A stretch of 64,000 nt of DNA. Origin: a virus. Both the position numbers and the translations under genes were made by a program. The first letter of the stretch is position 1. Every line of letters starts with the position of its first letter. Under the pieces are notes generated by a model, which was not told where the DNA came from, made no database searches, and saw nothing but the letters and a program-made list of their open reading frames with translations. The stretch lies in IMG/VR virus record IMGVR_UViG_3300005805_009577, positions 1-64,000 of that record. One strand, written 5' to 3'. Of this stretch, positions 7,493-60,607 are shown piece by piece.

Positions 7493-7498
7493 GGTACG
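7493..7498 (+). promoter_or_regulatory. RGTACG motif, copy 1
   Basis: TTTTTTTCGT-GGTACG, 24 nt before ATG 7523. Confidence 0.55.
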
Positions 7499-7522
7499 CT
7501 TGCTCGTGAAAGGGAGACAAAA

Positions 7523-7633
7523 ATGCCTACTACAATGCCTGTAAAAACACCTGTAAAAGTGCCGCAAGCACCACCCAAACAAGAGCCTTTTAAAAGCCCT
7601 AGACCGTCTGTTATGCCTGAACCTAAGAATTAA
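7523..7633 (+). CDS. 36-aa proline-rich small protein (absent from the ORF track)
   Basis: GGGAG RBS; MPTTMPVKTPVKVPQAPPKQEPFKSPRPSVMPEPKN. Confidence 0.6.
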   Translation: MPTTMPVKTPVKVPQAPPKQEPFKSPRPSVMPEPKN

Positions 7634-7655
7634 ATATAAAGAAAAATAAAAAATT

Positions 7656-8681
7656 ATGTATGAAAATAGTTTGCACGTTAATCCTGTTATTAGAAACTTT
7701 TGGATTAATCTCAGAAAATCAGAATCTCCTTTTCATGTTTTCAAGAAAAATAGAAATTTAGTTTATTTTGGAAACACTTTAAGCAAAGCTTCTTATGAAT
7801 TTTTTGGAAAAAGGGCAAAAGATTTAGATATTGATGTGGATATATCTCATCAAACACAAAACTTTCAAGACATTTTAAGAAAAGAGCGTGGCAATGAAAA
7901 AAAGTTGGAAGCTTTAGCCAAAAAAGCAGTATATGAGTCTTTTGGTATACCCGAAGATATTCTTGATGTTGAGCTAAACGGCAGCAAAGACGTAGATCTA
8001 AACAGGGTTGAAAAGAAAGAAAATATTCCTTATTCTAAATTAGATAGAGAAACTCAAAAGCTAATCAATAAAAGAATCTTGTTAAACACCATCATCCAGG
8101 GTTCGAGTATTCATGCTTTTTGTACTTTGCATCATTTAGTTAAGGATGATCTTGAAAAATTAATTCCTGGAATTGTTAAGCTTTATGATTCGTTGAGCGT
8201 AGGAACTGTTAGTTCTTATTGGAAAATAGATTATTCCAAATATGCAGAAGATCCTGATTTTTCTCAAAACATGGCAATAGGAAGCTCTAAGATTGAATAT
8301 GATGAAGAGGAAAATCCAGAAGTTGTATGTTCTGCAAAAACTTTTACTGTTTTGTGCCAAGAAATGGTAAAGGGCGGAATAGAGTGCATATGTCTACATG
8401 GTCTTCAAGATATCTCAAAAGAACAGCTAGAGATAGTTTATAATTTTAGCGATAAAAGGGTTGATGAACCTAGATATATCCAAGCTAGTTCAGAAGTTTG
8501 GCGTAGACTGCTTTCTTTTTACAAAGTTTATAAAAAAGATAACGACACCACACTGCCAGAATATATAATGAATATTAGCCTTCTATCCCCAGATGTTATT
8601 GAAGATTTTTTTGAAGGAGTCATTGATAATGATTTTGATAAGTCTATGGCAATCATTGGAGAAATAGTAAGTGAAACTTAA
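7656..8681 (+). CDS. Hypothetical phage protein
   Basis: 341-aa ORF; KRILLNTIIQGSSIH, DEPRYIQ; function unknown. Confidence 0.75.
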   Translation: MYENSLHVNPVIRNFWINLRKSESPFHVFKKNRNLVYFGNTLSKASYEFFGKRAKDLDIDVDISHQTQNFQDILRKERGNEKKLEALAKKAVYESFGIPEDILDVELNGSKDVDLNRVEKKENIPYSKLDRETQKLINKRILLNTIIQGSSIHAFCTLHHLVKDDLEKLIPGIVKLYDSLSVGTVSSYWKIDYSKYAEDPDFSQNMAIGSSKIEYDEEENPEVVCSAKTFTVLCQEMVKGGIECICLHGLQDISKEQLEIVYNFSDKRVDEPRYIQASSEVWRRLLSFYKVYKKDNDTTLPEYIMNISLLSPDVIEDFFEGVIDNDFDKSMAIIGEIVSET

Positions 8682-8874
8682 TAGTTTTTGGATTGTTAAA
8701 ATTCCAGATAAAAACTCTGAATTATCTGATGTTTGTTTTGAATCAAATTTAGAAGATTTTGCTTGTATGGTGCGTGGTGGCTTTAATGAAAAAGAAATTT
8801 ATTCTGTTCATGATAATAAACAAGAGGCCACAAAGCAATCTAAAAAACTCTTTGAATTGTTGAATGAAAATTAA
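8671..8874 (+). CDS. Hypothetical protein
   Basis: ORF coupled to the upstream gene. Confidence 0.6.
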   Translation: MKLNSFWIVKIPDKNSELSDVCFESNLEDFACMVRGGFNEKEIYSVHDNKQEATKQSKKLFELLNEN

Positions 8875-9321
8875 CTAATTTTTATTTACTATAGGATTAA
8901 ATATAAAATCATTTTCTTCATCATCGTAATGACAATCTAAAAGTCCCTCAGACGATAACTTAGAAAGAGCATTATTTATTATTCTAGAAAATAGTTCTTG
9001 TGCTATTTTTCCACAATTTGCTTCTGTGTCTTTGATAATCCAATAATTATTTATTTTTTTAGAATAATCCTCTAATATCAAAATAGATTCGTTTATAGTT
9101 AAAAAGTTATCCATTTCTTTGTTTATTAATTTTACTTTTTTTAATTTTTCTAAAATTATTCCATGAACTTCGTATAAAGTATCGTTTTTTATTTTTTTGC
9201 TTTGATTTTTATTTTTTTCTTCTTTAATTCCCTTAAATATCATTTTTCTTATTTGTTTTAAAAAACTTTCTACTTCTTTTCTGTTTAATTTTTTCATGGT
9301 TTCTCTCCGATTATTTATCAT
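8875..9321 (-). CDS. Hypothetical protein
   Basis: 148-aa ORF filling the gap; likely start at 9297 after GGAGA. Confidence 0.65.
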   Translation of the reverse strand: MINNRRETMKKLNRKEVESFLKQIRKMIFKGIKEEKNKNQSKKIKNDTLYEVHGIILEKLKKVKLINKEMDNFLTINESILILEDYSKKINNYWIIKDTEANCGKIAQELFSRIINNALSKLSSEGLLDCHYDDEENDFIFNPIVNKN

Positions 9322-9360
9322 ATCTAAAATATTATTTGAATCAAACTAAAAAAAAATTAA

Positions 9361-9390
9361 TTGATTACGAAAAGAAAAATATGGTATAAT
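9361..9390 (+). promoter_or_regulatory. Sigma-70-type promoter with extended -10
   Basis: TTGATT, 18 bp spacer, TG-G-TATAAT. Confidence 0.55.
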
Positions 9391-9405
9391 GAAAATTCGA
9401 ATTCT

Positions 9406-9411
9406 GGTACG
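9406..9411 (+). promoter_or_regulatory. RGTACG motif, copy 2
   Basis: ATTCT-GGTACG upstream of the rIIA-like gene. Confidence 0.5.
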
Positions 9412-9470
9412 GCGGTCTGGTGTCCCTCAAATAAAAAATATAGGATTTTGAGACTTAGAAAAGGAATAAA

Positions 9471-11669
9471 ATGAAGCTTAATACAGAATCTGGCATTGTT
9501 TCTACTAATAATACTGATAACCAAAGCATGGATTTCGGCATCGGTGATGTAAGCACTATCATCGACATTCTTAGAAACAGGCTTTACTCAAATCCAATTA
9601 GAACTCTTACCCAAGAGTATCTCTGTAACGCAAGGGATAGTCATAGAGAGGCAAAGAGAGATAATATACCTTTGAAAGTTACTCTACCCACTAAGCTCGA
9701 TAGTGTTTTGAAAATTAGAGATTATGGAGTTGGATTATCTCCTGATAGAGTTCGCGATGTGTTTGTTAATTACGGATCAAGCACTAAACGAAAAGACAAC
9801 GTTCAGACCGGTGGTTTTGGTATTGGTGCCAAAAGTGCGTGGGCATACACTGATAGTTTCGTTGTAGTTAGTTATTACGAAAATAAAATGAGAACATATG
9901 TTGCTCATACCGGAAAAAGCAGCAACGGAACTCTAGAGTTAATGAGCGAAGAACCAACCGATGAACCTAACGGCGTAGAGGTTCAAATCCCAGTCAAAGA
10001 GTCCGATATTGAATTTTTTATTAATGCGGTCTATAGATGTACATTCTTTTGGGACGTTAAACCAGATTTACAGGGAATTACCGAGATAGAGATTCCCAAA
10101 GACTGGAATAATCTACAATCTACAATTATAGAGAAAAGCAAGAACTGGATCTTGCTTAGAAAAACAGATTTGGCTAAAAAGCTTTTTGATGCACATAATG
10201 CGGAAATTTTTGTCCTTATAGACAAGATTCCCTATAGTATCAACAAGTTTTTAAGAGAGTGTCCGGAGGTAGATAAGCTTAGAGGGTCTACTTCTGCTTC
10301 CACTACAATTAATTTTATCGAAGTGGAAAATGGTGTACTAGAGGTAAGTGCCACCAGAGAAAGCATCTCTGATAAAGATAGCAGCAAAGCCAAGGTTGAT
10401 AAAATTTGTTCTGAAGTCAACTCTATTCTTGCAGACTGTGTTAATAATAAGTTTAACAAAGAACCAGATAATGTAAAAGCGTTTTTTGAAAACTTCTGTA
10501 AGATAAAAGAAGTATACCATCTAAACAACGTGCCAGGATTTAAAAACGGTGACTTTAGCAGAAATGTAGAAGAGTTATCTTTTAGAAAAGATGGGGTTGT
10601 CTATTCATTCAAAAATGGCAATCTTTACTCTGGAGAATACAACAATGTTAACAAGTTTATTTTAGACAAACAAAAATCTAGACTTGTTATGAAGCGTTCT
10701 GAAGGCAACGCTTATCTAGGAAATGGATTGGATAATGTGAAGTTCATTATCAAAGACATTCCCGAAAATTCTATGAGTGAACTTGCATTCAAAGAAAAAA
10801 TGCGGAGAGTTTTATTAAACTTTAATCCTCCTGAGATTGGCATTGTGTACATGTTCAATGCCAATGTAGGAAATATTAATAGTGTTAAAGAATTTTTTGA
10901 TGCCGAACTTCTTTCTGAAATCGAATACGAAAGAGTTGCTTATAGACCGAAGAAGGATGCGGGGAAAGTAACAATTAGAAAGCTAGGGTTAGGTAGCGGA
11001 AGATACACGGAAAAAGTTGAAACCCTGGACAAGAAAGATGTCACTTTAGAAGATTTAGTTGATTCTGGAAAAACATACGTTTTAGTTCCTTTTTCCGGCG
11101 ATGAAATGTATGAAGCCACTGAGACCGAATTCGTACAGAATATTAAGTTTATTACTAATAATGCAAAAAATACAGAGGTTGTCAAGGTAAGCAAAAAAGA
11201 ATATGAAGTTCTTTGTTTGCTTGATAATACTGTTGAGTATACCGATTTAATTCAAGACTTTCCGTCATACGTCGAATTAGATGAGCAGGTTGTAAAAGAC
11301 TTTTTCTCGGATAATGAAGATGCTTCGCTTGAACATCTTAGAAAATTTGTTGGACGTATAAACTGTCCTAAGATTAGAAGTTACTTTGAAACTGTTACTG
11401 CACCAGATAATGATAGAAACAGGTATTACAGAGCAGAAAGAAGAAAGGCTATACCAGATCGTATTCTTAAGAACTATGAGTTTTATAATAAAGCTTTGGT
11501 TAAGAACAATGAAATTAACGCTTTGAAAGAAGAAATATTTTCAAGCTATCCTCTTATCAAGTATGTTTCAAATTTTGTTAATTATGGCTATTATGGTCAT
11601 GATAAGAAAGCATCAGAAGATATTATTAAAGAAGTATTGATCTATATTAATGGAAAAGCGAGCAAATAA
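9471..11669 (+). CDS. rIIA: rIIA-like protein (N-terminal GHKL/Hsp90-type ATPase)
   Basis: EYLCNARDS, LKIRDYGVGLS, YGSSTKR...TGGFGIGAKS; lies upstream of an rIIB-like gene. Confidence 0.8.
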   Translation: MKLNTESGIVSTNNTDNQSMDFGIGDVSTIIDILRNRLYSNPIRTLTQEYLCNARDSHREAKRDNIPLKVTLPTKLDSVLKIRDYGVGLSPDRVRDVFVNYGSSTKRKDNVQTGGFGIGAKSAWAYTDSFVVVSYYENKMRTYVAHTGKSSNGTLELMSEEPTDEPNGVEVQIPVKESDIEFFINAVYRCTFFWDVKPDLQGITEIEIPKDWNNLQSTIIEKSKNWILLRKTDLAKKLFDAHNAEIFVLIDKIPYSINKFLRECPEVDKLRGSTSASTTINFIEVENGVLEVSATRESISDKDSSKAKVDKICSEVNSILADCVNNKFNKEPDNVKAFFENFCKIKEVYHLNNVPGFKNGDFSRNVEELSFRKDGVVYSFKNGNLYSGEYNNVNKFILDKQKSRLVMKRSEGNAYLGNGLDNVKFIIKDIPENSMSELAFKEKMRRVLLNFNPPEIGIVYMFNANVGNINSVKEFFDAELLSEIEYERVAYRPKKDAGKVTIRKLGLGSGRYTEKVETLDKKDVTLEDLVDSGKTYVLVPFSGDEMYEATETEFVQNIKFITNNAKNTEVVKVSKKEYEVLCLLDNTVEYTDLIQDFPSYVELDEQVVKDFFSDNEDASLEHLRKFVGRINCPKIRSYFETVTAPDNDRNRYYRAERRKAIPDRILKNYEFYNKALVKNNEINALKEEIFSSYPLIKYVSNFVNYGYYGHDKKASEDIIKEVLIYINGKASK

Positions 11670-14714: not shown

Positions 14715-15152
14715 ATGTATGATTTTATAATATGTCAAAAAAAATTGCCCGTTCCTGAAAATTTTTTAAATTTAGATTTTAGCAAAGAACCATTCAGAAC
14801 AAGCAGTCTTTCTAAAAATTTTAATAATTATTTAATTTCAAAAGATGGATTTTTTTATAGACAAAAAAATGATTCTTTAGAAAAAATTAATTATAGCGGA
14901 TTTATTTACTTTTCTACTCATTTTTTTAACGAACCACACACAAAACAATATTATATTTCATTTTTTTGTAGTTTTAAACAGGGCGTTCTAGAAGAACTCA
15001 GCTTAGACGGAACAAAAGAATATAGCATAAAAGATTACGATCTAAAAATTAAAAGCTTGGCAAATAAAAATTTTACTGACAAAAAATTTAAGAATTTTTG
15101 GGTGTACGTTCTAGATTGGTGGAAGTCTTGTTTTTATAAAGGAGAAGAATAA
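14715..15152 (+). CDS. Hypothetical protein
   Basis: 145-aa coupled ORF. Confidence 0.65.
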   Translation: MYDFIICQKKLPVPENFLNLDFSKEPFRTSSLSKNFNNYLISKDGFFYRQKNDSLEKINYSGFIYFSTHFFNEPHTKQYYISFFCSFKQGVLEELSLDGTKEYSIKDYDLKIKSLANKNFTDKKFKNFWVYVLDWWKSCFYKGEE

Positions 15153-15358
15153 TGAAGACTTTTGATTTAGAAGATGTAATTGAAAGTATGTTTAAGGCAG
15201 AAGAATGTAATGGAAGCATTGAAAGAAAAGCTGCTTTTAAAGCACATGCAACTAGGCGGCTCAAGTCTTATGTTAATCGACGATGCTCTGAAACAGGAGC
15301 CCGACCAAGCCAGATAGTTGCAGCAGTAAAAGCTTCCTTTACTAAGCGTAAAAGTTAA
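15152..15358 (+). CDS. Hypothetical protein
   Basis: AAGGAG RBS; TAATG stop/start overlap. Confidence 0.65.
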   Translation: MKTFDLEDVIESMFKAEECNGSIERKAAFKAHATRRLKSYVNRRCSETGARPSQIVAAVKASFTKRKS

Positions 15359-15415
15359 ATACGTTTCCCCAATCATATTAGAAAAACTATATAAATAGTT
15401 GCTTTTCTAATATGA

Positions 15416-19161: not shown

Positions 19162-19222
19162 AACTAAAATTGGCAATTTTAGATTTCTCTTTTTTTATAA
19201 ATAATTAAACTATAATGATTTT

Positions 19223-19438: not shown

Positions 19439-19451
19439 AATGGTTTTTCGT

Positions 19452-19457
19452 GGTACG
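19452..19457 (+). promoter_or_regulatory. RGTACG motif, copy 3
   Basis: TTTTTCGT-GGTACG, 20 nt before ATG 19478. Confidence 0.55.
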
Positions 19458-19477
19458 TCCTTTCCACGGAGGACTTT

Positions 19478-19693
19478 ATGAATTGTTCTGTTTGTAATAA
19501 AGAAGTGCTAAAAGAAAGGTATGAATTTCTTTTAGAAACAAAAAGAAAAATTATTTGTTTATCTTGTGCAAACGAGCCCAAAAGAACGGGCTTAATGGAT
19601 TTTAATCATAAAACAGCCCCACAGTTAGTTATCTTGCCAGAAGATCCAGAAATTAAAAGAATTGCTCGTCGTGCTTTTTGTAGGTCCCGTTAA
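19478..19693 (+). CDS. TraR/DksA-like C4 zinc-finger protein
   Basis: CSVCNKEVLKERYE...ICLSC matches CxxC..I..ER...CxxC; GGAGG RBS. Confidence 0.6.
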   Translation: MNCSVCNKEVLKERYEFLLETKRKIICLSCANEPKRTGLMDFNHKTAPQLVILPEDPEIKRIARRAFCRSR

Positions 19694-19710
19694 AAATTAA
19701 GGAGAATAAA

Positions 19711-19974
19711 ATGGCTCAGTCAGTAATAAATAATGTTGAGGAAAACATCGAAGTGACCGAAGAAAAAAAATTATCGGAAGACCAAATTCTAGATATGCTT
19801 TTTGCACAGATCGAAAAGCCAAAAAACTATTATAAGATTAAAGCAATCAATGTGTATGATAACGCTTACCGCGTTAATATCTGGTGCGAATATGAAGAAA
19901 ATAATTTAACTAAAAGGAAAATTGGTTATAGTTATTTTATTAAGGTTTATGGAAAAGAATTGATTGTAAAGTAA
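19711..19974 (+). CDS. Hypothetical protein
   Basis: AAGGAG RBS; NVYDNAYRVNIW. Confidence 0.7.
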   Translation: MAQSVINNVEENIEVTEEKKLSEDQILDMLFAQIEKPKNYYKIKAINVYDNAYRVNIWCEYEENNLTKRKIGYSYFIKVYGKELIVK

Positions 19975-20007
19975 TAATTGTAAAGTAATTTTTTTCATGG
20001 ATGATTT

Positions 20008-21033
20008 ATGTCTTTTGATATCAATAATAGCTTAGAAACTTTAAGCAAGTATATAGGTGACAGCCAGCCACTTTGCTTAATTGTTTTTCAAGAATATGGT
20101 CCCTGGAGTCACGAAGATAGGTTAGATTCCGATTGTAATCTTATATCTGATGTTTTGGTTAATAAAAAATTAGAGAACTTTAATTGGTTTAGTTTTTGTG
20201 TGGGCTTGATCATTAGATTAGAAAAAGAGAATAGATTCGATCTTTTTAATTTAGATTTCTTTTCTAGTTCTATAGACAATACAAAAAAGAGAATTGATAG
20301 TAAAAATTTGCCCAAGTCAGAAATAGGATTTAAAGGATGGCATGTTATTGGCTATGATTCTTTAGATTTTTTTGATGGGTCAAAAAAAGAAAAAATTAGT
20401 AATAGAAAAAATTTAAGACTTAAAAAAGAGGGGAAAATATTAGAAGAAGATAAAAGTCTTTTTTGTGAAGTTGCAAGAAAGGATGATCTCGTATTATACT
20501 TCCTCCCCGCTCTTGAGGAAAAAGAAAAAGATTTGGATAAGCTTGAATCCCAAAAAAAATCAAGAAAAAGATTGCTTTGCAAATACGGTAAAAACACAGA
20601 GTGGTGTACCGCCAATCCTACAGGCGATCATTCTGATTCTTTTGCTTTTATGCCAATTTATATTCTTCATGTTATGATTGGCGACGAATATAAGCCCATG
20701 TACCAATTCACAGAGGGCCAATTTAGAGATAAGTCAAACGAAGAAATATTTAGTGAATCTTATTTGCCTTCTGATATTTGTTCTTTTTTGTCTAGCAATA
20801 TTAAAAACTTAGAATCTTTTTTTGAAGAAGATAGTGACGAAGACGACTATGATGACTATTACGATGATGATGAAGATGAAGACGAAGATGATGACGACTA
20901 TGAAGATGATGAAGATGAAGATGATGAAGATGAAGATGAAATAGATAATGATGAAGATGAGTGGGATGAAGAAGATGAAGATGATGAAGATGAGTGGGAT
21001 GAAGATGAAGATGAAGATGAAGATGAAGATTAA
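20008..21033 (+). CDS. Hypothetical protein with a YGxxTxWCT motif and a long acidic tail
   Basis: CKYGKNTEWCTA; C-terminal ~69 aa are almost all D/E. Confidence 0.7.
   Translation: MSFDINNSLETLSKYIGDSQPLCLIVFQEYGPWSHEDRLDSDCNLISDVLVNKKLENFNWFSFCVGLIIRLEKENRFDLFNLDFFSSSIDNTKKRIDSKNLPKSEIGFKGWHVIGYDSLDFFDGSKKEKISNRKNLRLKKEGKILEEDKSLFCEVARKDDLVLYFLPALEEKEKDLDKLESQKKSRKRLLCKYGKNTEWCTANPTGDHSDSFAFMPIYILHVMIGDEYKPMYQFTEGQFRDKSNEEIFSESYLPSDICSFLSSNIKNLESFFEEDSDEDDYDDYYDDDEDEDEDDDDYEDDEDEDDEDEDEIDNDEDEWDEEDEDDEDEWDEDEDEDEDED
20824..21030 (+). repeat. Low-complexity GAT/GAA (Asp/Glu) repeat
   Basis: Many GATGAAGAT units, including a duplicated GATGAAGATGAGTGGGATGAA. Confidence 0.9.
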
Positions 21034-21053
21034 TATTTATTGAAATTCTTGCC

Positions 21054-21248
21054 ATGAGTCAGGCTACCATAAAATTTAAAGTAAAACAGGATCCAATTAC
21101 GAAGAACTTAGAATTACAAATTTATCGTAATTGCGGCAAAGAAAAAGATGAATGGTTTATGGTTGACAGGTTTAATGAATTGACGGCAAGAGAGCTAAAA
21201 GGTCTCGCAGATTTTATTAATTCATTGTTTGTTAAAAAAGAAAAATAA
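21054..21248 (+). CDS. Hypothetical protein
   Basis: 64-aa ORF. Confidence 0.55.
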   Translation: MSQATIKFKVKQDPITKNLELQIYRNCGKEKDEWFMVDRFNELTARELKGLADFINSLFVKKEK

Positions 21249-21249
21249 A

Positions 21250-21633
21250 ATGGCACATCCTTATCATCATGCTATAAGTAGTGTAAAAAAGTGGGGCGGC
21301 AAGCCAGAAGATTATCAAGCTATTCATGATTGGTTTGATGAAAGTAAAAGCCATATTGCCGATATAAGGCATCGTGCTTTAAGGCACCATAGCGAAGGCA
21401 TATTCATGGCAGAAAAAATATTCGGAACAACTATAAAAATTTCCACAGGAAGAAAAATCCCTGTTAGATTTATAGGCGAACAACATGTAATAGAAGACTT
21501 TGGATTTATACCAACGGTTTCTGATTTTCTAAAAAATATAAAAGTAGAGTCTTGGATGATTGGAAACAGAAAATTTAAGCCACCGGAATCTTTAGAGACT
21601 GTTAAAAAGAAAACAAAGCTCAATAAAAAATGA
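21250..21633 (+). CDS. DUF6915-like protein (copy 1)
   Basis: MAHPYHHAISSVKKWGGKPEDY..IHDWFDESK...RHRALRHHSEGIF...IGEQHVIED. Confidence 0.75.
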   Translation: MAHPYHHAISSVKKWGGKPEDYQAIHDWFDESKSHIADIRHRALRHHSEGIFMAEKIFGTTIKISTGRKIPVRFIGEQHVIEDFGFIPTVSDFLKNIKVESWMIGNRKFKPPESLETVKKKTKLNKK

Positions 21634-22283
21634 GAGTTATTCCTTTTTATGGATTAAGACGTTCGGGCATTCACGCTGTATTAGAGTGGCTTACACACTC
21701 GCTAGGAGATGGAGGACAAAGGGTAGAATTACAAGAAAATAGAATTATAAGATATAACAACGCGGCATATTTAAACGATTGCAGCACTTGGGAATCTGAT
21801 AAGATAGAAGGTTATTTGCAAGATTGTGATTTAAATTTTGTTTTGGTATCGTACGAAGACACCAGTTTAGATTTTTCCTACTACGCCACATCAGAAAAGC
21901 CTATTGTCGTTATAAGAGATATAAAAAACTTAGCAGCAAGCAGAATAAGATCTTGGAAGACTTTTAATGAAGAAGTTTTAAATAATTGGATAGAACACGC
22001 ACAGTCAGAAAGCAAACAAATGTCCAGAATAATAAGATATGAAAGTTGGCTGACAGATAAAGGCTATAGAAATGGTTTTGTTTCATGCTACAATAAGCAA
22101 AATTTAGATAAAACAGATTATGTTTCTAAATTCGGCAGTGGAAGTTCTTTTATAGGAAGAAAACTTGATAAAGTTGATAAACTGCTTAATCGTTGGAAGC
22201 AAATTGGCTTTTCCGATAATGTAAAAAGCCTCCTAGAAAAAGAAGAAGTAAGCGAAGCTAGGAAATTAATGGGATATTTATAA
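21630..22283 (+). CDS. P-loop sulfotransferase-like protein
   Basis: GLRRSGIHA (PAPS loop-like), VIRD...ASR, IRYE. Confidence 0.6.
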   Translation: MRVIPFYGLRRSGIHAVLEWLTHSLGDGGQRVELQENRIIRYNNAAYLNDCSTWESDKIEGYLQDCDLNFVLVSYEDTSLDFSYYATSEKPIVVIRDIKNLAASRIRSWKTFNEEVLNNWIEHAQSESKQMSRIIRYESWLTDKGYRNGFVSCYNKQNLDKTDYVSKFGSGSSFIGRKLDKVDKLLNRWKQIGFSDNVKSLLEKEEVSEARKLMGYL

Positions 22284-22296
22284 TAGGAATATTAAA

Positions 22297-22728
22297 ATGT
22301 ATAAAAATGATGATAAAGATGTTTTCTGTAAAATTTTTAAATCTCTAGGATTTAAAAGAATAGAAGCCGACTTTAACGGCTACGCTGATAGCGGAAATAT
22401 AGACTCTGTTTCTTTGATAGAAAATTCAGGTCGGCAAATTACAGTAGGTTTTGGCTCTGAATTAAATGAAGCTTTGTCTGAAAAAATTAATACCAAAAAC
22501 AACCTATTAAATCAATTTGATAATAATATTAAAAGTATAGCAAGCCAATATAAAGACTTGGCAACTTATTTAGAACATACCTTGTGGGATTTTTTGCCTG
22601 GAGGGTTTGAAATAAATGAGGGTAGTTATGGCACGATAGAAGTTGATCTCAAAACCGGAAAAATTGATATTGACCAAAACTATAACCCAGAGTATGATGG
22701 CGAAGATTCTGAATTTATTGATAATTAA
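22297..22728 (+). CDS. DUF6878-like protein
   Basis: IEADFNGYADSGNIDSV...GFEINEGSYGTI. Confidence 0.65.
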   Translation: MYKNDDKDVFCKIFKSLGFKRIEADFNGYADSGNIDSVSLIENSGRQITVGFGSELNEALSEKINTKNNLLNQFDNNIKSIASQYKDLATYLEHTLWDFLPGGFEINEGSYGTIEVDLKTGKIDIDQNYNPEYDGEDSEFIDN

Positions 22729-22773
22729 AAAAGCTTTTTTAGTTGAAAACGGACTTTCATATAAAGGAAAAAA

Positions 22774-23151
22774 ATGTTTGTTCTCAAGAATTTTAATGGA
22801 GAAGATCTTGAAATATTTTTTGATATATTCGCTGAACTAGGTATTAAAGAAATAGAAGCAGATTACATGGGTCAAGGAGAAACAGAAGAGTTTAATGTTT
22901 ATTGTTGGAGTGAAGAAAACGAGGAAATAGACATAAAAGATAACACCAAATATCCAGAAAATTATCGAGAATATATCAATAATAATTATGACGGAAGTCT
23001 AGCCAGATATTTAGATTCTTTTATGCGTAATTGCATACCTATTGATTACAAAGAAAATTTTGGAAGTTTTGGTGTTATAAAGTTTAAAATGGATGAAAGA
23101 GATTATGAGATTATTAAGTTTGAATACTCTGGTAGCCTAGAGGATTTTTAA
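22774..23151 (+). CDS. Divergent paralog of the preceding DUF6878-like protein
   Basis: LGIKEIEADYMGQGE...ENFGSFGVI parallels LGFKRIEADFNGYAD...INEGSYGTI. Confidence 0.55.
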   Translation: MFVLKNFNGEDLEIFFDIFAELGIKEIEADYMGQGETEEFNVYCWSEENEEIDIKDNTKYPENYREYINNNYDGSLARYLDSFMRNCIPIDYKENFGSFGVIKFKMDERDYEIIKFEYSGSLEDF

Positions 23152-23318
23152 TGAATAGAAAAACTTTTTTGTTATGTTTGGCGTCTGTTCTTTCTATGGG
23201 CTTTACGGCAAAAACCTATAGATACAAATGCCCTAAATGCAAGTTAATACAAGAGTATGGGACTCCTGGGGTCAAGCGTTGTCCGAACGACAAAACAATA
23301 ATGATAAGACAGAATTAG
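23151..23318 (+). CDS. 55-aa exported zinc-ribbon-like protein (absent from the ORF track)
   Basis: MNRKTFLLCLASVLSMG (Tat-like leader), YKCPKC...KRCPND. Confidence 0.6.
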   Translation: MNRKTFLLCLASVLSMGFTAKTYRYKCPKCKLIQEYGTPGVKRCPNDKTIMIRQN

Positions 23319-23327
23319 GAGATTTTT

Positions 23328-24230
23328 GTGAAGGTAAATCATAAAAGATTGCAAAAAATAAAGAGCAGCATACCAATTAGATTTTTTCACGAAAAAAGTT
23401 TTGACACATCATTTAGAAATAAAATATTATCTGACATACCGCTCGATTATAGCAAAGTTGATTATAGCAATATATTGGCTTGTTCCCCTTTATTAAATAA
23501 AGACCAAGAACAGCATCTTTTTAGAAAATATAATTATTTTAAATATAGAATATTGAAGTTGACAACTGGCGTCAAAAAGTCAGAAGTTAATCCACATCTT
23601 AAGTTTTCCAAGCCTGTAAATTTAGAAAAGCTTGGTGATAAATCTTTAAAAGAGATTGAAAGATTAATCTTTCAATCTAATAAAATAAGAAATTTACTTT
23701 TAGAGTCTAATTTAAGATTGATAATCAAACAACTTTCTAGATATTACCAAGTCGATTCATACAACAGAGATGAATTTTTTTCTCACGGATATTGTCATGT
23801 TTTAAAGGCAGTTGATTGTTTTGATTACAGAAAAGGTTTTAAATTTTCTACTTATTGTATAAATGTTTTGCAAACTAATTTTTATAGAGATTCTTCTTAT
23901 GTAAGAAAATTAAGCGAAAACTTATCTCAATTCGAAGATATTGAAATAGAAGATAAAAAAGAAGTTGATTACTCTGAAATAAATCAGGGTTATAATATAA
24001 AATTTATTAATGAAATGTTCGATAAAATAAAAATTAAATTGAAAAATCCTGATATAAAAATCAAGATTGTTAGAGACTATTATGGATTAGATGGCGATCA
24101 AAAGAATCTTTGCCAATTAGCTAAAGAGCTTAATTTGAGTAAAGAAAGAATAAGACAAATAAAGCTAGAAGTTTTAAGGTATTTGTCAAACAAGGTTGCA
24201 AAAGAAGTTGTTTATGACCCTTTAGTTTGA
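23328..24230 (+). CDS. Sigma-70 family RNA polymerase sigma factor
   Basis: LLNKDQEQHLFRKYNYFKY, ESNLRLI, KAVDCFDYRKGFKFSTY, LNLSKERIRQI (regions 2 and 4). Confidence 0.9.
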   Translation: MKVNHKRLQKIKSSIPIRFFHEKSFDTSFRNKILSDIPLDYSKVDYSNILACSPLLNKDQEQHLFRKYNYFKYRILKLTTGVKKSEVNPHLKFSKPVNLEKLGDKSLKEIERLIFQSNKIRNLLLESNLRLIIKQLSRYYQVDSYNRDEFFSHGYCHVLKAVDCFDYRKGFKFSTYCINVLQTNFYRDSSYVRKLSENLSQFEDIEIEDKKEVDYSEINQGYNIKFINEMFDKIKIKLKNPDIKIKIVRDYYGLDGDQKNLCQLAKELNLSKERIRQIKLEVLRYLSNKVAKEVVYDPLV

Positions 24231-24422
24231 CTTCTTCTTTTTCTTCTTTTTCTTTTTTTTATCCGGAGGATTTGTTTTTACTTTTCTAGATGCGTCTAAG
24301 TAAGGCGTATATCTAGTAAAATATGATTTTGGATAATTGCCAATACCTCCATATAAAGGAGGGTATATTCCAACTATATCTTCTCCAAATGTTCTCTTTA
24401 CATATTCACTAAAAGTTATCAT
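24222..24422 (-). CDS. Small basic protein
   Basis: MITFSEYV...GIYPPLYGGIGNYP...poly-Lys tail. Confidence 0.6.
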   Translation of the reverse strand: MITFSEYVKRTFGEDIVGIYPPLYGGIGNYPKSYFTRYTPYLDASRKVKTNPPDKKKKKKKKKKSN

Positions 24423-24458
24423 ATAAATTATATATAATAAAATTTAAAAAATTTTTTT

Positions 24459-24464
24459 GGTACG
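24459..24464 (+). promoter_or_regulatory. RGTACG motif, copy 4
   Basis: ATTTTTTT-GGTACG, 26 nt before ATG 24491. Confidence 0.55.
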
Positions 24465-24490
24465 CCAAGAGTTTGTAAGGGAGTACAAAT

Positions 24491-24748
24491 ATGAATATGC
24501 AATATGGAAATTGCCTTACGGGTGCGTTATTTTTAATGCTAAGAGAAAGAAGAAATAGGCCTAAATTTATAATTAGAGTTAGACCAGGAACATTTGTTCC
24601 TCATTTTATGGTTAGAACCAAAGATAAATTACATCACTATAGGGTAATCAAAGATATTCTTTGTTGGCCTTTTTGTTATTTAGTTTTTAGGGGAGAACTA
24701 CAAACGGTAAGCGTATCTGAAGAAGATAATTATATAAAGCGTTATTAA
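24491..24748 (+). CDS. Hypothetical protein
   Basis: GGGAG RBS; NCL...PHF pattern. Confidence 0.65.
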   Translation: MNMQYGNCLTGALFLMLRERRNRPKFIIRVRPGTFVPHFMVRTKDKLHHYRVIKDILCWPFCYLVFRGELQTVSVSEEDNYIKRY

Positions 24749-26626: not shown

Positions 26627-26702
26627 GTCGCTATTGCGACATTCCTAGTTCACTGGAAAAAAATTGGAGAACTTTCTTAAAAATAATTTAAATTTGTTTC
26701 TC

Positions 26703-26708
26703 GGTACG
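26703..26708 (+). promoter_or_regulatory. RGTACG motif, copy 5
   Basis: TTTGTTTCTC-GGTACG upstream of 26764. Confidence 0.55.
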
Positions 26709-26763
26709 TCCATCGGGTAGTCAGGCTTACAGTAAACAATTTTTAGAAAAGGGATTAATACAA

Positions 26764-27447
26764 ATGGCTAAGAAACCTAGTGCTTTCGGAAGTGTTTTGT
26801 CTGAAAAGGCTCCCGAAGATAAGAAGGCGGGAAAGAGCAAGGATATTTACAAGTTTGTCGAATCTGGTCCTGGCGATCAGAATCTTTTTGATGTTGTTAA
26901 TGCTCTTAAGTCTGCTAAGAACATTATTGACGGCGAACTTAAGATTCTTGAAGAGCAGCTTAAGAGTACTGTTCTTCTCGACAAGTTTGTTGAAATTGGA
27001 ATGAACTCGCATCGTCGTCCCGAAAGTTTTGAGGGGCAGGGTGATGTAAGCAGTGCTACGATTACCATTTCTAGTGCTACTAGGAGTGATATTGATAGCA
27101 AGGCTAGGGAAACCCTTGAGTCTTATGATGTTGACTTCAATTACAAGGAGACTGTTGCTATCCGTAGCAACGTTCTTGAAAACGAAGAAATGGTTCATAA
27201 GATTGTTGATGCTCTCACTAATGCTGGAATTGATGTGAACTCTGTGCTTGAAAAGACCACTAAGGTCGTTGCGAGCGATAAGACGATTGATAGCATTTTT
27301 GAGAAGATTCCCAATAAGAATGATGTGCGTGAACTTCTTAAGAAGGTCAGCAGCATCAGCATTCGTAGTGGTAAGTTTAGTGATGATCCCGAAGATGCCC
27401 GGAATACTGTAGCCGACATTATCAAGAGTTTCGGTATCTTCGGTTGA
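26764..27447 (+). CDS. Hypothetical protein, probably highly expressed
   Basis: Biased codon use (AAG, CTT, GTT, GCT, CGT); flanked by a promoter and a terminator. Confidence 0.8.
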   Translation: MAKKPSAFGSVLSEKAPEDKKAGKSKDIYKFVESGPGDQNLFDVVNALKSAKNIIDGELKILEEQLKSTVLLDKFVEIGMNSHRRPESFEGQGDVSSATITISSATRSDIDSKARETLESYDVDFNYKETVAIRSNVLENEEMVHKIVDALTNAGIDVNSVLEKTTKVVASDKTIDSIFEKIPNKNDVRELLKKVSSISIRSGKFSDDPEDARNTVADIIKSFGIFG

Positions 27448-29441: not shown

Positions 29442-29453
29442 ACTCTTTTTTCG

Positions 29454-29459
29454 AGTACG
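29454..29459 (+). promoter_or_regulatory. RGTACG motif, copy 6
   Basis: CTCTTTTTTCG-AGTACG, 25 nt before ATG 29485. Confidence 0.55.
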
Positions 29460-29484
29460 CCCTAGACGTAACAAGGAGAATAAA

Positions 29485-33290: not shown

Positions 33291-33330
33291 AATTATCTTT
33301 TAAACACAAAAAAACTAAAAGCGTATAGGG

Positions 33331-40314: not shown

Positions 40315-40352
40315 TAAATAAAAATTTAACTTTTAAAAAATAAAGTATCCGT

Positions 40353-40358
40353 AGTACG
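40353..40358 (+). promoter_or_regulatory. RGTACG motif, copy 8
   Basis: CCGT-AGTACG, 19 nt before ATG 40378. Confidence 0.5.
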
Positions 40359-40377
40359 CTCTATCATAGAGGGCATT

Positions 40378-40818
40378 ATGCTTTTTAATCAAATAAGTCA
40401 TTTTCAGAAATTGGCTAGAAAGAATTTTGAAGATTTTGGTGAACTAGCACCAGTTATGTTTGGAGTATATAAAGATCCAGAAACTGGAGAATATATTCAA
40501 AAAATTATAGGATTGGTTTTTGGGCCAGAAGATAAAGATGCCTTTACTAATTTTTTGTGTAATGAAATTAGAAACAACAACTTAAAAGAATATTTACTTG
40601 TTTTAGAATCATGGATTACCGAATTTAATATAGAAGGAATTCCAAAAAAATCTGAATGCGTAATGATGGTTTATAGTAGTGCCAAGCAAGAAAAAGTTTG
40701 TATGAGCAGCATCTCACGTTCACCTGATAGATTGGGTGAATGGAAAGATTATAATGCTAAAAATATGCAAGGTAGATTTTTAGGTTTATATAAAAAGGCA
40801 GTTGCCGAATGGAATTAA
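40378..40818 (+). CDS. Hypothetical protein
   Basis: 146-aa ORF. Confidence 0.7.
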   Translation: MLFNQISHFQKLARKNFEDFGELAPVMFGVYKDPETGEYIQKIIGLVFGPEDKDAFTNFLCNEIRNNNLKEYLLVLESWITEFNIEGIPKKSECVMMVYSSAKQEKVCMSSISRSPDRLGEWKDYNAKNMQGRFLGLYKKAVAEWN

Positions 40819-46594: not shown

Positions 46595-46783
46595 GGCATA
46601 ACAAGATGGATATCACATTTTTTCAATATTCTTGTGCTATTTTGAGTTGCACCTTGATGGGTTTTGTGGTTGGGCTATCTTTTGCGGCTTTATTATTTAA
46701 TAAATAATTTAACACAATTTTTTTTAAATATTCTTAAAATCTATTTTAAATGTATTTGAACAAACAAATCAAATGATTCTTCT

Positions 46784-46789
46784 GGTACG
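46784..46789 (+). promoter_or_regulatory. RGTACG motif, copy 9
   Basis: ATTCTTCT-GGTACG upstream of 46858. Confidence 0.55.
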
Positions 46790-46857
46790 TATAAAGGGTG
46801 TTGCGACGATGGCACGTTGCTGTCGGTAACATGGTTGATGAAAAAAGGAGAATGATT

Positions 46858-47136
46858 ATGCCGCGTGTTAAGAATCAGGAGGCTGTTGCTCTTGATAAGT
46901 TTCTTGAGGCCGTTCACCGTCACGTTGCTGCCGGTCATACGGTTGAAGAGTGTGCTAAGGATCTTAATCTTAAGCCCGCTTCGGTTTCGGTTCGTCTTTC
47001 GCAGCTTCGCAAGAAGTTTAAGGACGCTGGGATTGAAATGGACATTCCTCGCTTCAAGGGTGGCGTTCGTAAGTCCACGCTTATCGACGAGGCCAAGGTT
47101 ATCCTTGAGCGGCTTCAGTCGAAGAAGAGCCGCTGA
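46858..47136 (+). CDS. Small HTH DNA-binding protein (paralog of 7172..7423)
   Basis: AGGAG RBS; TVEECAKDLNLKPASVSVRLSQLRKK; GC-richer biased codons. Confidence 0.75.
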   Translation: MPRVKNQEAVALDKFLEAVHRHVAAGHTVEECAKDLNLKPASVSVRLSQLRKKFKDAGIEMDIPRFKGGVRKSTLIDEAKVILERLQSKKSR

Positions 47137-52624: not shown

Positions 52625-52718
52625 TTGAAACCTCCGTGCTTCTATAATTATATACGCATCTGAATTGATTAAAATCTTTTTAAATAGAAAAATAGACAAA
52701 AAACACTCTTATTTTTTG

Positions 52719-52724
52719 GGTACG
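52719..52724 (+). promoter_or_regulatory. RGTACG motif, copy 10
   Basis: ATTTTTTG-GGTACG, 10 nt before ATG 52735, which has no SD. Confidence 0.55.
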
Positions 52725-52734
52725 TTATCTTTTT

Positions 52735-52920
52735 ATGGGAAAAGAAAAATCTGATAAGATTCGCAAAGAAATGTTAGTGGTTGATGGAAATGAAATCAAG
52801 AGAATCTGTAGAGATGAATTGGGCGGCATAACTTTTATTGCCGAAGTTCTTCATTCAAGAATTGTATTGACTGCTTGGACTGGCGAAAACGAAAAAGTTT
52901 TAGCAACACAAGTAAAGTAA
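52735..52920 (+). CDS. Hypothetical protein
   Basis: 61-aa ORF. Confidence 0.55.
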   Translation: MGKEKSDKIRKEMLVVDGNEIKRICRDELGGITFIAEVLHSRIVLTAWTGENEKVLATQVK

Positions 52921-57407: not shown

Positions 57408-57436
57408 TATTATAAAAAAATTTAAAAGATAAAAGT

Positions 57437-57482
57437 GGTACGCTAACTCTAGGGTCACGGAGCGGCCCTAGAGTTAGCGTAC
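57437..57482 (+). promoter_or_regulatory. RGTACG motif, copy 11, forming the base of a 17-bp perfect inverted repeat
   Basis: GTACGCTAACTCTAGGG (57438-54) / CCCTAGAGTTAGCGTAC (57466-82). Confidence 0.65.
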
Positions 57483-57507
57483 TGTTACTTATACAGGAAA
57501 AAATATA

Positions 57508-57990
57508 ATGACTATTAATGATTGTAGAGTAGGAATGAGAGTTTTTTTTGGTCGAGAAACAGGCGAAAAAACGACCGGCACTGTTGTAAAGATAAATGGC
57601 AAAAAAGCCAAAGTTAGAACAGATGAATCTCGTGGAAAGTTTCCGGCTGGCTCAGTTTGGAGTGTTCCTTATTCAATGCTTGAGCCTTTAGATTGTGCGA
57701 AGGATGAAGTAAATCTTGTCCGTCAGCCGATTCAGCCAATCGAATACTCTCCGTTTCAGGATAGAGTAGAGCAGTTGGCACTTGAAGCTATTGCTTGTTG
57801 CTATAATGGCTTAAGCCCGGAAAATTTATCTTGTGATGGCGAGGCACCTATGTATTTGATAAATCAAAAAAGAGCCAAGCTAAACAAGCAGCTTAAAGGC
57901 TTGTTTGCAGTCATAGGTAGAGAAGTTGATGAAATGACTGTTTATAATTGGCTTGATCAAAAAAGAAGCAGAAGCACAGAATATGAATAA
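57508..57990 (+). CDS. Phage protein with an SH3/KOW-like N-terminus
   Basis: VGMRVFFG...GTVVKINGKKAKV; LSPENLSCDGE. Confidence 0.7.
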   Translation: MTINDCRVGMRVFFGRETGEKTTGTVVKINGKKAKVRTDESRGKFPAGSVWSVPYSMLEPLDCAKDEVNLVRQPIQPIEYSPFQDRVEQLALEAIACCYNGLSPENLSCDGEAPMYLINQKRAKLNKQLKGLFAVIGREVDEMTVYNWLDQKRSRSTEYE

Positions 57991-58729: not shown

Positions 58730-58999
58730 ATGAATAAATTAAATAGTTTTAAAAAAGATCCTTTATGGAATGTTTTAAAAATTTTACCCACCGACTATAG
58801 TTGTTACGGCGGAGAAGTTGCAAGATGGGAAGATGATAAAAAGTCTTATCCAGATTGCAGTTGTGGGTGTAGATATTTTGTTGAATTAAGCGGAAAAAGA
58901 GGTGCTGACTGGGGCGTTTGTTCTAATGAAAATAGCCCCAGGGCAGGTCTTTTAACTTGGGAACATCAAGCCGGTTTTGGTTGCTTTGTTGAAGAATAA
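58730..58999 (+). CDS. Cys-rich protein, DUF3027-like
   Basis: DCSCGCRYF..L.G..GADWGVCSNENSPRAGLLTWEH. Confidence 0.6.
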   Translation: MNKLNSFKKDPLWNVLKILPTDYSCYGGEVARWEDDKKSYPDCSCGCRYFVELSGKRGADWGVCSNENSPRAGLLTWEHQAGFGCFVEE

Positions 59000-59000
59000 T

Positions 59001-59981
59001 ATGCCAGTTAAATATAAGAGCATTTTGCTGCGGGAAAACCAGTCTGTGGTTTTTAAGCTAGATAATAAAATTATAGAAAAGTTTGATAATTTTATTTATT
59101 TGCCAAGTGCTATGAATGCTTGCAACTTACTTCACAAGCATTTTAAAGCACAAGAAGTAGAAGACTACATAAAACAAACTTTGGGAGAAAATGCTACAAC
59201 GCTAGATTTGTTTAAAAATAAAGAGAACCAAGAAGAAGACTCCAGAGAAATTAGAAAAAAATATAAACTTCGTGCCTATAGAGGTTTTATTTCTAAATTT
59301 GGAATTAGCCCTTTAAACTTTAAAAGAGTATTTAATGCAATAATGTTAGAAATTTGGGCTGTGAAGCCGTATTTCTCTAGGTATTGTTATAATAAATATC
59401 GAATAAATGAAGATCTTTTAAAGAAAGTTCATAAAAACTTAAGTCTAATGAATAGTGCAAGAGACAAAGGTCTCGATAACATAGTTCCTTTTATTTTATA
59501 TTCTGGATTGTCCGCTAGTTCATTAAAAAAATTATTCGGAGCTAGTTTGTGGAAAAAATTAATATCTAACAGCCATCATAAAAACCACCTAATAGCCAAG
59601 AGGGTTTCTTATTCTCTTGATCTTTGCAGCAACAGTAAGGCAAAAGTAATAGGCAAAAGAAAAGAGTTGCTAACTTCATTAGAGTATTTTAATAAATTAC
59701 CATCTACTATATTAGAAGTTCCTCACTTCTTTGGTTTAAGCGATCCAGAAAAAGATACTATTTTTTCTCTATTAAATTGTTTAAAGGTTAAAGAGGTTGC
59801 AGAAGAATTAAATGATGGTCATTGGAGGGTTGGCGGTCTTTATACAACTATTTTTGAAACTATAAAACGATCAAAGGAATTAAACAAGAAATATTCTATT
59901 AATTGGACAAAAGAAGATTGGATCAAAAAATACGAAGAATACAAAGTTTTAGAATTTTACTCTACCAGCTTCAATAAATGA
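59001..59981 (+). CDS. Hypothetical protein
   Basis: 326-aa ORF. Confidence 0.65.
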   Translation: MPVKYKSILLRENQSVVFKLDNKIIEKFDNFIYLPSAMNACNLLHKHFKAQEVEDYIKQTLGENATTLDLFKNKENQEEDSREIRKKYKLRAYRGFISKFGISPLNFKRVFNAIMLEIWAVKPYFSRYCYNKYRINEDLLKKVHKNLSLMNSARDKGLDNIVPFILYSGLSASSLKKLFGASLWKKLISNSHHKNHLIAKRVSYSLDLCSNSKAKVIGKRKELLTSLEYFNKLPSTILEVPHFFGLSDPEKDTIFSLLNCLKVKEVAEELNDGHWRVGGLYTTIFETIKRSKELNKKYSINWTKEDWIKKYEEYKVLEFYSTSFNK

Positions 59982-60003
59982 TTATCTGTAAAGGTGTGAT
60001 TAA

Positions 60004-60330
60004 ATGAACAACATATTAAAAGTTTTTAAGAATATGTCTGAAGAAGAAAAAAGGAAAGAAGTTGAAAAATTAGAACAAAAGTTTCCAGCTAATAGTCCTG
60101 GCTGGGAATTTAAGTTTAATAGAGCAGACGAAATAAACCTTTATATAGGTAGAATAATTAGCATTTTAGACGAATTTGGAGAAACTAACGACTGGTCGAA
60201 GTATATTTGCTATTCTGTGGATGAAACAGCAAAAAATTATGAAAAATTGGTTCTTAGGTTTGTAAAAGAGTATAAGCCTGAGTTGTTTTCTTACTACATG
60301 GAATACTATGGTATCGAGGAAAAAAATTAA
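60004..60330 (+). CDS. Hypothetical protein
   Basis: AAGGTG RBS. Confidence 0.6.
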   Translation: MNNILKVFKNMSEEEKRKEVEKLEQKFPANSPGWEFKFNRADEINLYIGRIISILDEFGETNDWSKYICYSVDETAKNYEKLVLRFVKEYKPELFSYYMEYYGIEEKN

Positions 60331-60345
60331 ATTGGAGGTATTTTT

Positions 60346-60573
60346 ATGAAAGTTATCAAAGTACTGTTGGTCTCTATTTGTTTTTTTGGTATTAACACTT
60401 ATGCCGGTGGCTTTACAAACAAGCCCATTAGAAGCATATTGCAAGATATTAAAGAGCGAGGAAAGTGCAGACGTATAGCAGTTGAGGGGACTTCTGTTCG
60501 GGTTCATTTTATGAACTCCGAGGATGCAAGGATATTTGCCAATGATCTTGTTGATTTAATCAACGAAGAATAA
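60346..60573 (+). CDS. Small secreted protein
   Basis: GGAGG RBS; signal peptide. Confidence 0.65.
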   Translation: MKVIKVLLVSICFFGINTYAGGFTNKPIRSILQDIKERGKCRRIAVEGTSVRVHFMNSEDARIFANDLVDLINEE

Positions 60574-60601
60574 AACTAATAATTATTTTATTTTTTTATT
60601 G

Positions 60602-60607
60602 GGTACG
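60602..60607 (+). promoter_or_regulatory. RGTACG motif, copy 12
   Basis: TTTTTTTATTG-GGTACG, 15 nt before ATG 60623, which has no SD. Confidence 0.55.

Follow-up and report, generated by a model that had tools for sequence, protein, structure and literature searches.

GTAC boxes as a probable promoter class, and a candidate sigma factor to read them, in an uncultured phage and its relatives

The window, its genes and the placement of the GTAC box

The window considered here is the first 64 kb of the 181,145-bp IMG/VR virus record IMGVR_UViG_3300005805_009577 (the whole record is called G0 below), and the element in question is the hexamer RGTACG, or GTAC box, which occurs between its genes and is very probably the core of a phage-specific promoter. 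The record is 78% complete according to CheckV, has about 30% G+C, and carries nearly all of its genes, called here from open reading frames (ORFs), on the + strand. Among the products encoded in the window are rIIA (9471-11669; phrog_612, 1.8e-78), an ATP-dependent DNA ligase (29485-30567), a MoxR-like AAA ATPase (33392-34453) with its DUF2201/VWA partner (34470-35801), and a sigma factor of the sigma-70 family (Table 1). The phage has no close cultured relative, since 24 kb of its sequence found no megablast match among cultured phages, tblastn of the sigma against cultured phages returned weak partial matches only, and its rIIA is at most 34% identical to that of any cultured phage. The contigs of the clade are likewise uncultured, low in G+C and 135-381 kb in length, and all contigs compared are 68-79% complete. 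An alignment of the homologue family of the sigma, which has roughly 50 closer homologues, retrieved 15 viral loci. The sigmas of the genomes G006 (G6), G009 (G9) and G008 (G8, 381 kb) are 52%, 42% and 47% identical to that of G0, respectively.

In the window RGTACG occurs 18 times, a total weakly above the 11 ± 2.9 expected by chance, with 16 copies on the + strand and 2 on the - strand. Twelve of the 16 + strand copies fall in the intergenic 6.1% of the window (binomial 4e-12), with 10-65 nt between their end and the start codon that follows. An earlier sequence-only reading of the stretch had singled out these 12 hexamers as the starts of transcription units; all were found on the + strand where it had placed them, and its statement that 9 of the 11 + strand copies of GGTACG are intergenic agrees with a recount using the ORF-based gene calls. 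The enrichment check, when run on the whole record, gave 66 copies of RGTACG on the + strand and 11 on the - strand, with at least 45 of the 66 intergenic (2e-29). For GGTACG the count is 49 on the gene strand versus 3 on the opposite strand, where a first-order Markov model expects 6.7 and 4.6, and an unbiased scan of intergenic and upstream k-mers in G0, G6 and G9 also puts this word first for upstream enrichment. The bare word AGTACG is hardly over-represented (17 versus 12.9 expected). Depletion of the word outside promoters was considered and rejected, the counts on the non-gene strand being in agreement with expectation. The total number of boxes in this phage genome is about 50.

Positions within and around the box are numbered from the R of RGTACG, which is index 0. 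A position weight matrix (PWM) that was trained on the sites themselves, and which describes rather than tests them, gives ten of the 12 window sites scores of 16.5-24.5 bits. These ten sites are strong; those at 40353 and 57437 are weak and fit the extended motif poorly. The coding copies at 14485, 33037, 33646 and 38139 do not fit the extended motif (-15 to 14). The T- and A-rich flanks that had been described proved to be real, with T at index -7 to -4 in 8-10 of the 12 sites and A at -11 to -13 in 7-10 of them.

Table 1. Coordinates of the boxes, the sigma gene and other signals; positions are those of the window unless another genome or the whole record is named
Feature	Position	Strand	Core	Score (bits)	Context
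GTAC box	7484-7509	+	GGTACG at 7493	21.5	predicted start about 7509; heads conserved 36-aa ORF (7523-7633) and gene 7656-8681; 12 nt past intrinsic terminator 7447-7480
GTAC box	9397-9422	+	GGTACG at 9406	20.2	before rIIA
GTAC box	19443-19468	+	GGTACG at 19452	23.1	heads gene string 19478-24230, sigma gene last; ribosome-binding site GGAGG starts at index 16
GTAC box	24450-24475	+	GGTACG at 24459	21.7	heads 24491-24748; follows minus-strand gene 24222-24422
GTAC box	26694-26719	+	GGTACG at 26703	22.7	before 26764-27447
GTAC box	29445-29470	+	AGTACG at 29454	20.2	before ATP-dependent DNA ligase
GTAC box	33322-33347	+	AGTACG at 33331	20.6	before MoxR-like ATPase and DUF2201/VWA genes
GTAC box, weak	40344-40369	+	AGTACG at 40353	8.8	no T-run; before 40378-40818
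GTAC box	46775-46800	+	GGTACG at 46784	16.5	before 46852-47136
GTAC box	52710-52735	+	GGTACG at 52719	21.2	first + strand signal after minus-strand genes
GTAC box, ambiguous	57428-57453	+	GGTACG at 57437	8.4	before 57508-57990
GTAC box	60593-60618	+	GGTACG at 60602	24.5	top score in window
Possible 13th site	15103-15108	+	TGTACG (tttttggg-TGTACG)	13.6	inside 3' end of 14715-15152; box end 44 nt before start of 15152-15358
Sigma-70-family sigma, 300 aa	23328-24230	+			regions 2 and 4 (PF04542, PF04545); phrog_351
Boxes with leaderless ATG	G0 52719; G0 79294; G9 49572; G8 304404
TATAAATA/TATATAWA sites	15390-15397; 19196-19203; whole record 72429 (L060:8429-8436), 127521, 149133

A conserved distance to the predicted start

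In G0 the sites beyond the window read C-9 C-8 T T T T y G G / RGTACG / g/y y ... G13. T15 G16. The window sites are weaker, with TTTT at -7 to -4, frequently cgt preceding the core, YY following it, and A-rich stretches at -11 to -13 and -17 to -20. Of 52 G0 sites, 51 have a purine at index 16, and T prevails at index 15, which makes a pyrimidine-purine (Y-R) step 11 nt past the last G of RGTACG, and the step lies at an equal distance from GTAC in G6, G9 and G8. When ATGs that open ORFs of at least 50 aa are counted, four are found at index 16, in three genomes, versus 0-2 at every other index from 6 to 24; the 5' edges of ribosome-binding sites accumulate from index 15/16 onward, and leadered ATGs from index 25. 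Because the Y-R step is conserved, leaderless ATGs coincide with it and the ribosome-binding-site edges begin there, we infer the index-16 purine to be the first transcribed base, and GTAC would then lie at about -15 to -12. In the window the ATG of 52735-52920 starts exactly at index 16 of the 52719 box, so its mRNA would be leaderless, and the box at 60602 is followed by an ATG at 60623, so that the leader would be 5 nt long and devoid of a ribosome-binding site; the description of both as near-leaderless is borne out.

The layout is that of a single element, with GTAC 12-15 nt upstream of the conserved Y-R step that is the predicted start. No -35-like block is conserved: nothing stands out upstream of index -12 in G9 or of -9 in G8, and in G0 and G6 the sequence there is merely A/T-rich. 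As had been claimed, the motif is distinct from TTGACA/TATAAT promoters, and it would act as a -10-like element. T2, A3 and T7 might correspond to T(-12), A(-11) and T(-7) of a sigma-70-type TAnnnT -10 element whose interior is rich in G/C and whose discriminator is long, at 8 nt; T is found at index 7 in 41 of 46 sites in G9 and in 84 of 96 in G8, G0 has only Y there, and in G6 the preference is absent.

Several better-known layouts were compared with the aligned sites. A bipartite sigma-70 layout finds no counterpart, as nothing is conserved at index 22-27, where a -10 would fall if GTAC were the -35, or at -19 to -14, where a -35 would fall if GTAC were the -10. GTAC as a -35 box or as the 'TG' of an extended -10 was also rejected, the required downstream positions being unconserved. 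Sigma-54 promoters have GG and GC elements that are 10 bp apart (TGGCAC-N5-TTGC), and this type was rejected on three counts: GG and TG are 15 nt apart, a GC dinucleotide element is missing, and GG does not occur in G8. A hairpin promoter of the N4 type was rejected as well, since the CC-TTTTy-GG pairing potential exists in G0 only and the flanks in G9 and G8 cannot pair.

The related genomes carry the box in different forms. GGTACG is found on the gene strand versus the other strand in ratios of 26:2 in G6 and 46:5 in G9, and is the top upstream k-mer in both. The flanks are lineage-specific, with phased A-tracts in G6 and aaGTTTCYTCCC/GGTACG/CT in G9; a minor G9 form, cTGTTCGT/GGTACG/CT, resembles the ttttCGT/GGTACG/c of the window. 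G8 has no excess of GGTACG, and its top upstream word is aaAAT-TGTACCCTA, with 84 copies on one strand versus 12 on the other. In that genome the flanks have been rewritten (TTGTACCCTA), but the GTAC core, the GTAC-to-TG spacing and the placement before the same genes have been kept. When the four genomes are aligned on GTAC, T15 and R16 are common to all, so that what stays constant is the GTAC core together with the spacing between it and the Y-R step.

Homologues in G6 exist for the first downstream genes of 10 of the 12 window sites, and 7 of these 10 have a box within 100 nt upstream, versus 1.5 expected (p = 1.3e-4). In G6 the box lies 48 nt upstream of rIIA and 61 nt upstream of the orthologue of the gene behind the 19452 box. 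For the orthologues of 26764-27447 the distances are 68 nt in G6 and 61 nt in G9, and for those of 46852-47136 they are 77 nt and 84 nt. The G8 ligase gene and the G8 orthologue of the gene at 57508 have G8-type boxes 44 nt and 45 nt upstream, respectively. The MoxR gene is preceded by a box at 52-60 nt in all four genomes, the G8 copy being of the G8 type, and the spacers around these boxes cannot otherwise be aligned between genomes. No orthologue was found for comparison in the case of 40378-40818, the first gene after the 40353 site. Such a change of flavour across a regulon whose positions are conserved is what would be expected from co-evolution with one trans-acting reader.

Orthologues of the small ORF at 7523-7633 in G6 and G9 are also preceded by a box. 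The predicted 36-aa product begins MPTTMPVKTPVK, is rich in proline and threonine, and is 84% identical in G6 and 66% in G9, where each copy lies directly behind its GTAC box and is followed by the same 341-aa gene.

From probable initiation signal to candidate reader

Where the boxes lie relative to other signals bears on whether they act in DNA or in RNA. Some follow terminators, as at 7447-7480 before the 7493 box and in the 136-141 kb region, where long hairpins lie about 25 nt before boxes, and the boxes at 9406, 24459 and 52719 are the first + strand signals after minus-strand genes. Over the four genomes, none of 40 minus-minus gaps versus 116 of 417 plus-plus gaps contains a box, so that minority-strand genes have none, and a comparison of the flanks in G0, G9 and G8 found no secondary structure common to the lineages around the boxes. 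A start signal at the level of DNA is favoured because the boxes follow terminators and strand switches, skip the minority-strand genes and lack a shared structure.

A role in RNA, as an endoribonuclease site or a 5' untranslated region (5'-UTR) element by which polycistronic transcripts would be cut near index 16, is very unlikely. The boxes keep to one strand and to intergenic DNA, and their distance from an apparent 5' end is fixed, features that are common to processing and initiation, and the 57437 box lies within a very stable hairpin. Yet no conserved structure accompanies the box, with no common pairing in the flanks of three lineages; no upstream transcript would arrive behind an intrinsic terminator or a strand switch; the upstream A-tracts and T-runs are typical of promoter DNA; and the mRNAs of the minority-strand genes, which have no boxes, would need processing too. 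The hairpin at 57437 is a perfect 20-bp one in which the box forms the 5' arm (57437-57456 pairing with 57464-57483; dG -37.7 kcal/mol, z -7.7), and this inverted repeat explains the minus-strand AGTACG at 57478. Regulation through the hairpin, stabilisation of RNA and recombination are possible roles of the 57437-57483 repeat.

The proposal of a phage-specific promoter class in the sequence-only reading is supported by the enrichment, the k-mer scan, the strand specificity, the conservation before orthologous genes in three phages and the Y-R step; the GTAC box is real and probably functions as such a class. It would serve as a single-block promoter for most majority-strand genes in this phage and its relatives, the block in G0 being (C)C-TTTT-y-G-G / RGTACG / y-y followed by the Y-R step, with the start at index 16. 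Transcription by the host core RNA polymerase is proposed because no phage polymerase gene was found, and promoter specificity would most likely come from the phage's own sigma. That this sigma reads the box is about an even bet, and the statement as a whole, a GTAC-box promoter with the phage sigma as its reader, could equally well hold or fail.

The sigma is the sole Sigma70_r2 match on the G0 contig, as is the case for one sigma each in G6 and G9, while G8 has three, and a phage sigma gene co-occurs with the motif in all four GTAC-box genomes. Among the structures of the Protein Data Bank (PDB), primary-like sigmas come nearest to the family. In E. coli sigma-70, F419, F427 and Y430 form the base-flipping pocket, and W433, Q437 and T440 read the upstream edge of the -10 element, the W433 tryptophan being used by primary sigmas to open it. 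Aligned to FKFSTYATWWIRQAITR, the phage sigma keeps the equivalents of F419, F427 and Y430; the W433 position has become N or R, the W434 position V, and the positions of Q437 and T440 have changed differently in each lineage. N or R occupies the W433 position in each of the four phages with the GTAC box, and the more distant sigma-bearing phages G10, G11, G12 and G14, which do not have the box, keep the tryptophan. It is a possibility falling somewhat short of even that a sigma with W433, Q437 and T440 replaced reads a GTAC-core element that has no -35, and that sigma and regulon have drifted together.

A number of observations weigh against the phage sigma as reader of a GTAC-box promoter. 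The correlation between the W433 position and the box comprises 4 + 4 lineages and is confounded by shared ancestry, T7 is strong in G9 and G8 only, and the start site is a prediction from sequence. Region 4.2 is intact, with DNA-contact residues like those of sigma-70 (KERIRQ), yet no -35 is conserved. In G0, G6 and G9 the sigma gene itself lies downstream of a GTAC box and lacks a separate promoter, so that read-through or self-activation would be required. G016 has boxes and no sigma on its 125 kb, and at 68-79% completeness a polymerase or a second factor could lie outside the contigs. Moreover, the dense arrays of boxes in front of tiny genes recall T4-type phages, whose early regions are transcribed by the host sigma (PMC2839356), and promoters that are active at once on infection could not be read by a sigma that has only just been made.

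The box arrays and the position of the sigma gene behind a box would suit reading by a host holoenzyme, with a primary or an alternative sigma and perhaps a phage activator docking upstream of GTAC. The upstream block (index -10 to -1) differs by lineage as an activator site might, and a candidate for the activator is the amplified small helix-turn-helix (HTH) family of this genome, acting in the manner of MotA/AsiA. At T4 middle promoters the host sigma uses a TAnnnT -10, and T2, A3 and T7 fit a generic element of this kind. However, the block lies at about -26 to -17, away from the -30 position of a MotA box, and a hexamer with a G/C-rich interior and no -35 would be a poor site for a primary sigma. 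Ordinary promoters of the TTGACA/TATAAT type are also present in these phages; consensus-like sigma-70 sites are no commoner than in shuffled sequence. One such promoter, a near-consensus TTGTCA-16-TATAAT, belongs to the G8 sigma gene itself and lies about 30 nt upstream of it; in G0 a TTGATT-N17-TATAAT with TG before it is found at 9361-9390, and the 9406 box follows 16 nt further downstream. Since the G8 sigma promoter and a few in G0 such as that at 9361-9390 exist, the host seems to read the standard signal, and the G8 promoter fits a scheme in which the host reads ordinary promoters and makes the sigma early. Reading of the box by a host holoenzyme is on balance unlikely, with perhaps one chance in several. 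The two signals stacked before rIIA (9361-9422) suggest that this gene is expressed in two phases.

Promoters of phage RNA polymerases are usually laid out as a compact block ending about 10 nt before the start and without a -35, which is how the GTAC box is laid out, and an unrecognised phage polymerase, either single-subunit or a diverged multisubunit enzyme, might be encoded on the missing part of a genome, all contigs being incomplete. Searches of five contigs (about 1 Mb) with PF00940, PF00562 and PF00623 found no RNA polymerase, and positive controls worked for two of the three families, the PF00940 search being without one. The largest ORF of G0 encodes 732 aa, its big unannotated ORFs have no match to a polymerase in PHROG, and the presence of a sigma factor gene implies that the host core enzyme is used. 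This alternative is highly improbable, slightly more so than a role in RNA.

Known promoter systems, the second signal class and other observations

The closest known system is the single-element promoter read by the sigma gp36 of phiEco32, whose middle and late promoters have tAATGTAtA centred near -11.5, with the start 6-8 bp downstream (PMC8948821, PMC12276001). Between phiEco32 and phage 7-11 the promoter positions are conserved and the sequences are not (PMC8948821), and between G0 and G8 box positions have likewise been kept while their sequences changed. As in phiEco32, the GTAC box is one block just upstream of the predicted start, without a -35, and a phage sigma together with the host core polymerase, here presumed, would read it. 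There are differences: the GTAC core with its G/C flanks is unrelated in sequence, the block of about 17 bp is longer and slightly further from the predicted start, and the sigma has a well-conserved region 4.2, which gp36, without region 4, does not. In addition, the phage groups are unrelated, and there are about 10 times more sites here.

Together with gp33 and the gp45 clamp, gp55 reads the late promoters of phage T4, which consist of TATAAATA at about -10 (-13 to -6). The GTAC box would likewise be a phage-specific, -10-only promoter in a phage that carries rIIA, with some leaderless or very short leaders, but it does not contain TATAAATA. A better counterpart is a second promoter-like class, TATAAATA/TATATAWA, which lies 8-14 nt before ATGs in a nearly leaderless layout, serves different genes, and in each of the four genomes shows relative enrichment ahead of genes on the minority strand. 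In G9 this class precedes a tail-like protein of 830 aa, and at 72442 in G0 it precedes an ORF that starts MKTFQEY and resembles the T4 capsid-targeting peptide. A search with phrog_234 for a gp55 homologue, without a positive control, gave no match. The TATAAATA/TATATAWA sites appear to form a T4-late-like class, and because of this the GTAC box, which would mark another class, is presumably the earlier one. The temporal gene class proposed in the sequence-only reading has indirect evidence behind it, namely the lack of boxes at minority-strand genes and the existence of this separate TATAAATA class in front of capsid-tag-like genes. A comparison of annotations between genes with and without boxes yielded no functional split, since most of the proteins have no PHROG match.

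In T4 middle promoters a MotA box (TGCTT-type) centred at -30 is combined with a TAnnnT -10, and sigma-70 is remodelled by AsiA. The GTAC box is similar in its possible TAnnnT -10 (T2, A3, T7) and in a phage-specific upstream block that substitutes for the -35, but here the block abuts the core (about -26 to -17) and has no TGCTT-like sequence, and the phage has a full sigma of its own. No conserved block centred at -30 was found; homologues of MotA and AsiA were not searched for. Unlike phages of the T7 type, there is no match to a cognate single-subunit polymerase in the five incomplete contigs searched with PF00940, a search that had no positive control.

The PeSL (promoter-early stem-loop) cassettes of the T4-type phages RB49 and phi1 join strong sigma-70-like promoters, which are read by the host holoenzyme, to stem-loops (PMC2839356). 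Here, too, small genes are bracketed by a promoter together with a stem-loop or terminator, at 7447-7509 and densely at 136-142 kb, but the promoter element is the non-canonical GTAC box rather than a sigma-70-like one, and most boxes of the window have no stem-loop.

In the literature searched, no paper links GGTACG to a phage promoter. If the box acts as proposed, a GTAC core with a start 12 nt after its C would predict most transcription units of the clade, and operon maps and leaderless genes could be read from sequence alone. The four lineages would amount to a natural experiment in which a sigma and some 50-90 promoters change specificity together. Sister lineages would then carry different, possibly orthogonal sigma/promoter pairs (GGTACG, CCCGGTACGCT, TTGTACCCTA) before the same genes. 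Such pairs would make up a series of matched variants that arose in nature, and the sigma would recognise its -10 element in a new way. Promoter recognition by a sigma that does not have the tryptophan of primary sigmas would be worth a structure, and matched pairs could be useful as orthogonal expression parts.

Wider searches for GTAC-box phages added little. A scan of viral contigs with the sigma as a single protein returned no match, a metagenome scan returned only sigmas that are at most 31% identical, and a MoxR-based scan found no additional GTAC-box phages. A scan with the exact word CCTTTTYGGGGTACG gave 25 single matches, which were rejected as chance because the five records behind them (four longer than 170 kb, one of 51 kb) are unenriched. 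G10 was rejected as a GTAC-box phage, its GGTACGCTCTGG copies being coding RCC1-type repeats: GGTACGCTCTGG(G/T)T occurs at L086 (G010 239 and 1004) and L088 (47035) within repeats of the form DGTLW.WG.N.YGQLG. These repeats imitate the G9-type box by chance and call for caution in searches by motif only.

Upstream motifs of a different kind are seen in two other phages. In an unrelated 122-kb phage with 51% G+C (L320:2860-3000), a unit some 50 nt long, gggtttt(tt)gaaaaact..tcccc(g/a)gatggtt...gg(g/a)agttg, is present in two tandem copies upstream of a MoxR homologue and may be a repeated control signal of that phage's own. G014 (G14; L094-L101) has its own bipartite upstream motif, ggCTGCGATAAAA-N11-cTAGT, for example at 141906, 142279, 146761 and 149784; its word GCGATAA occurs 22 times on the gene strand versus 7 times on the other and is clustered in the small-gene array at 142-154 kb.

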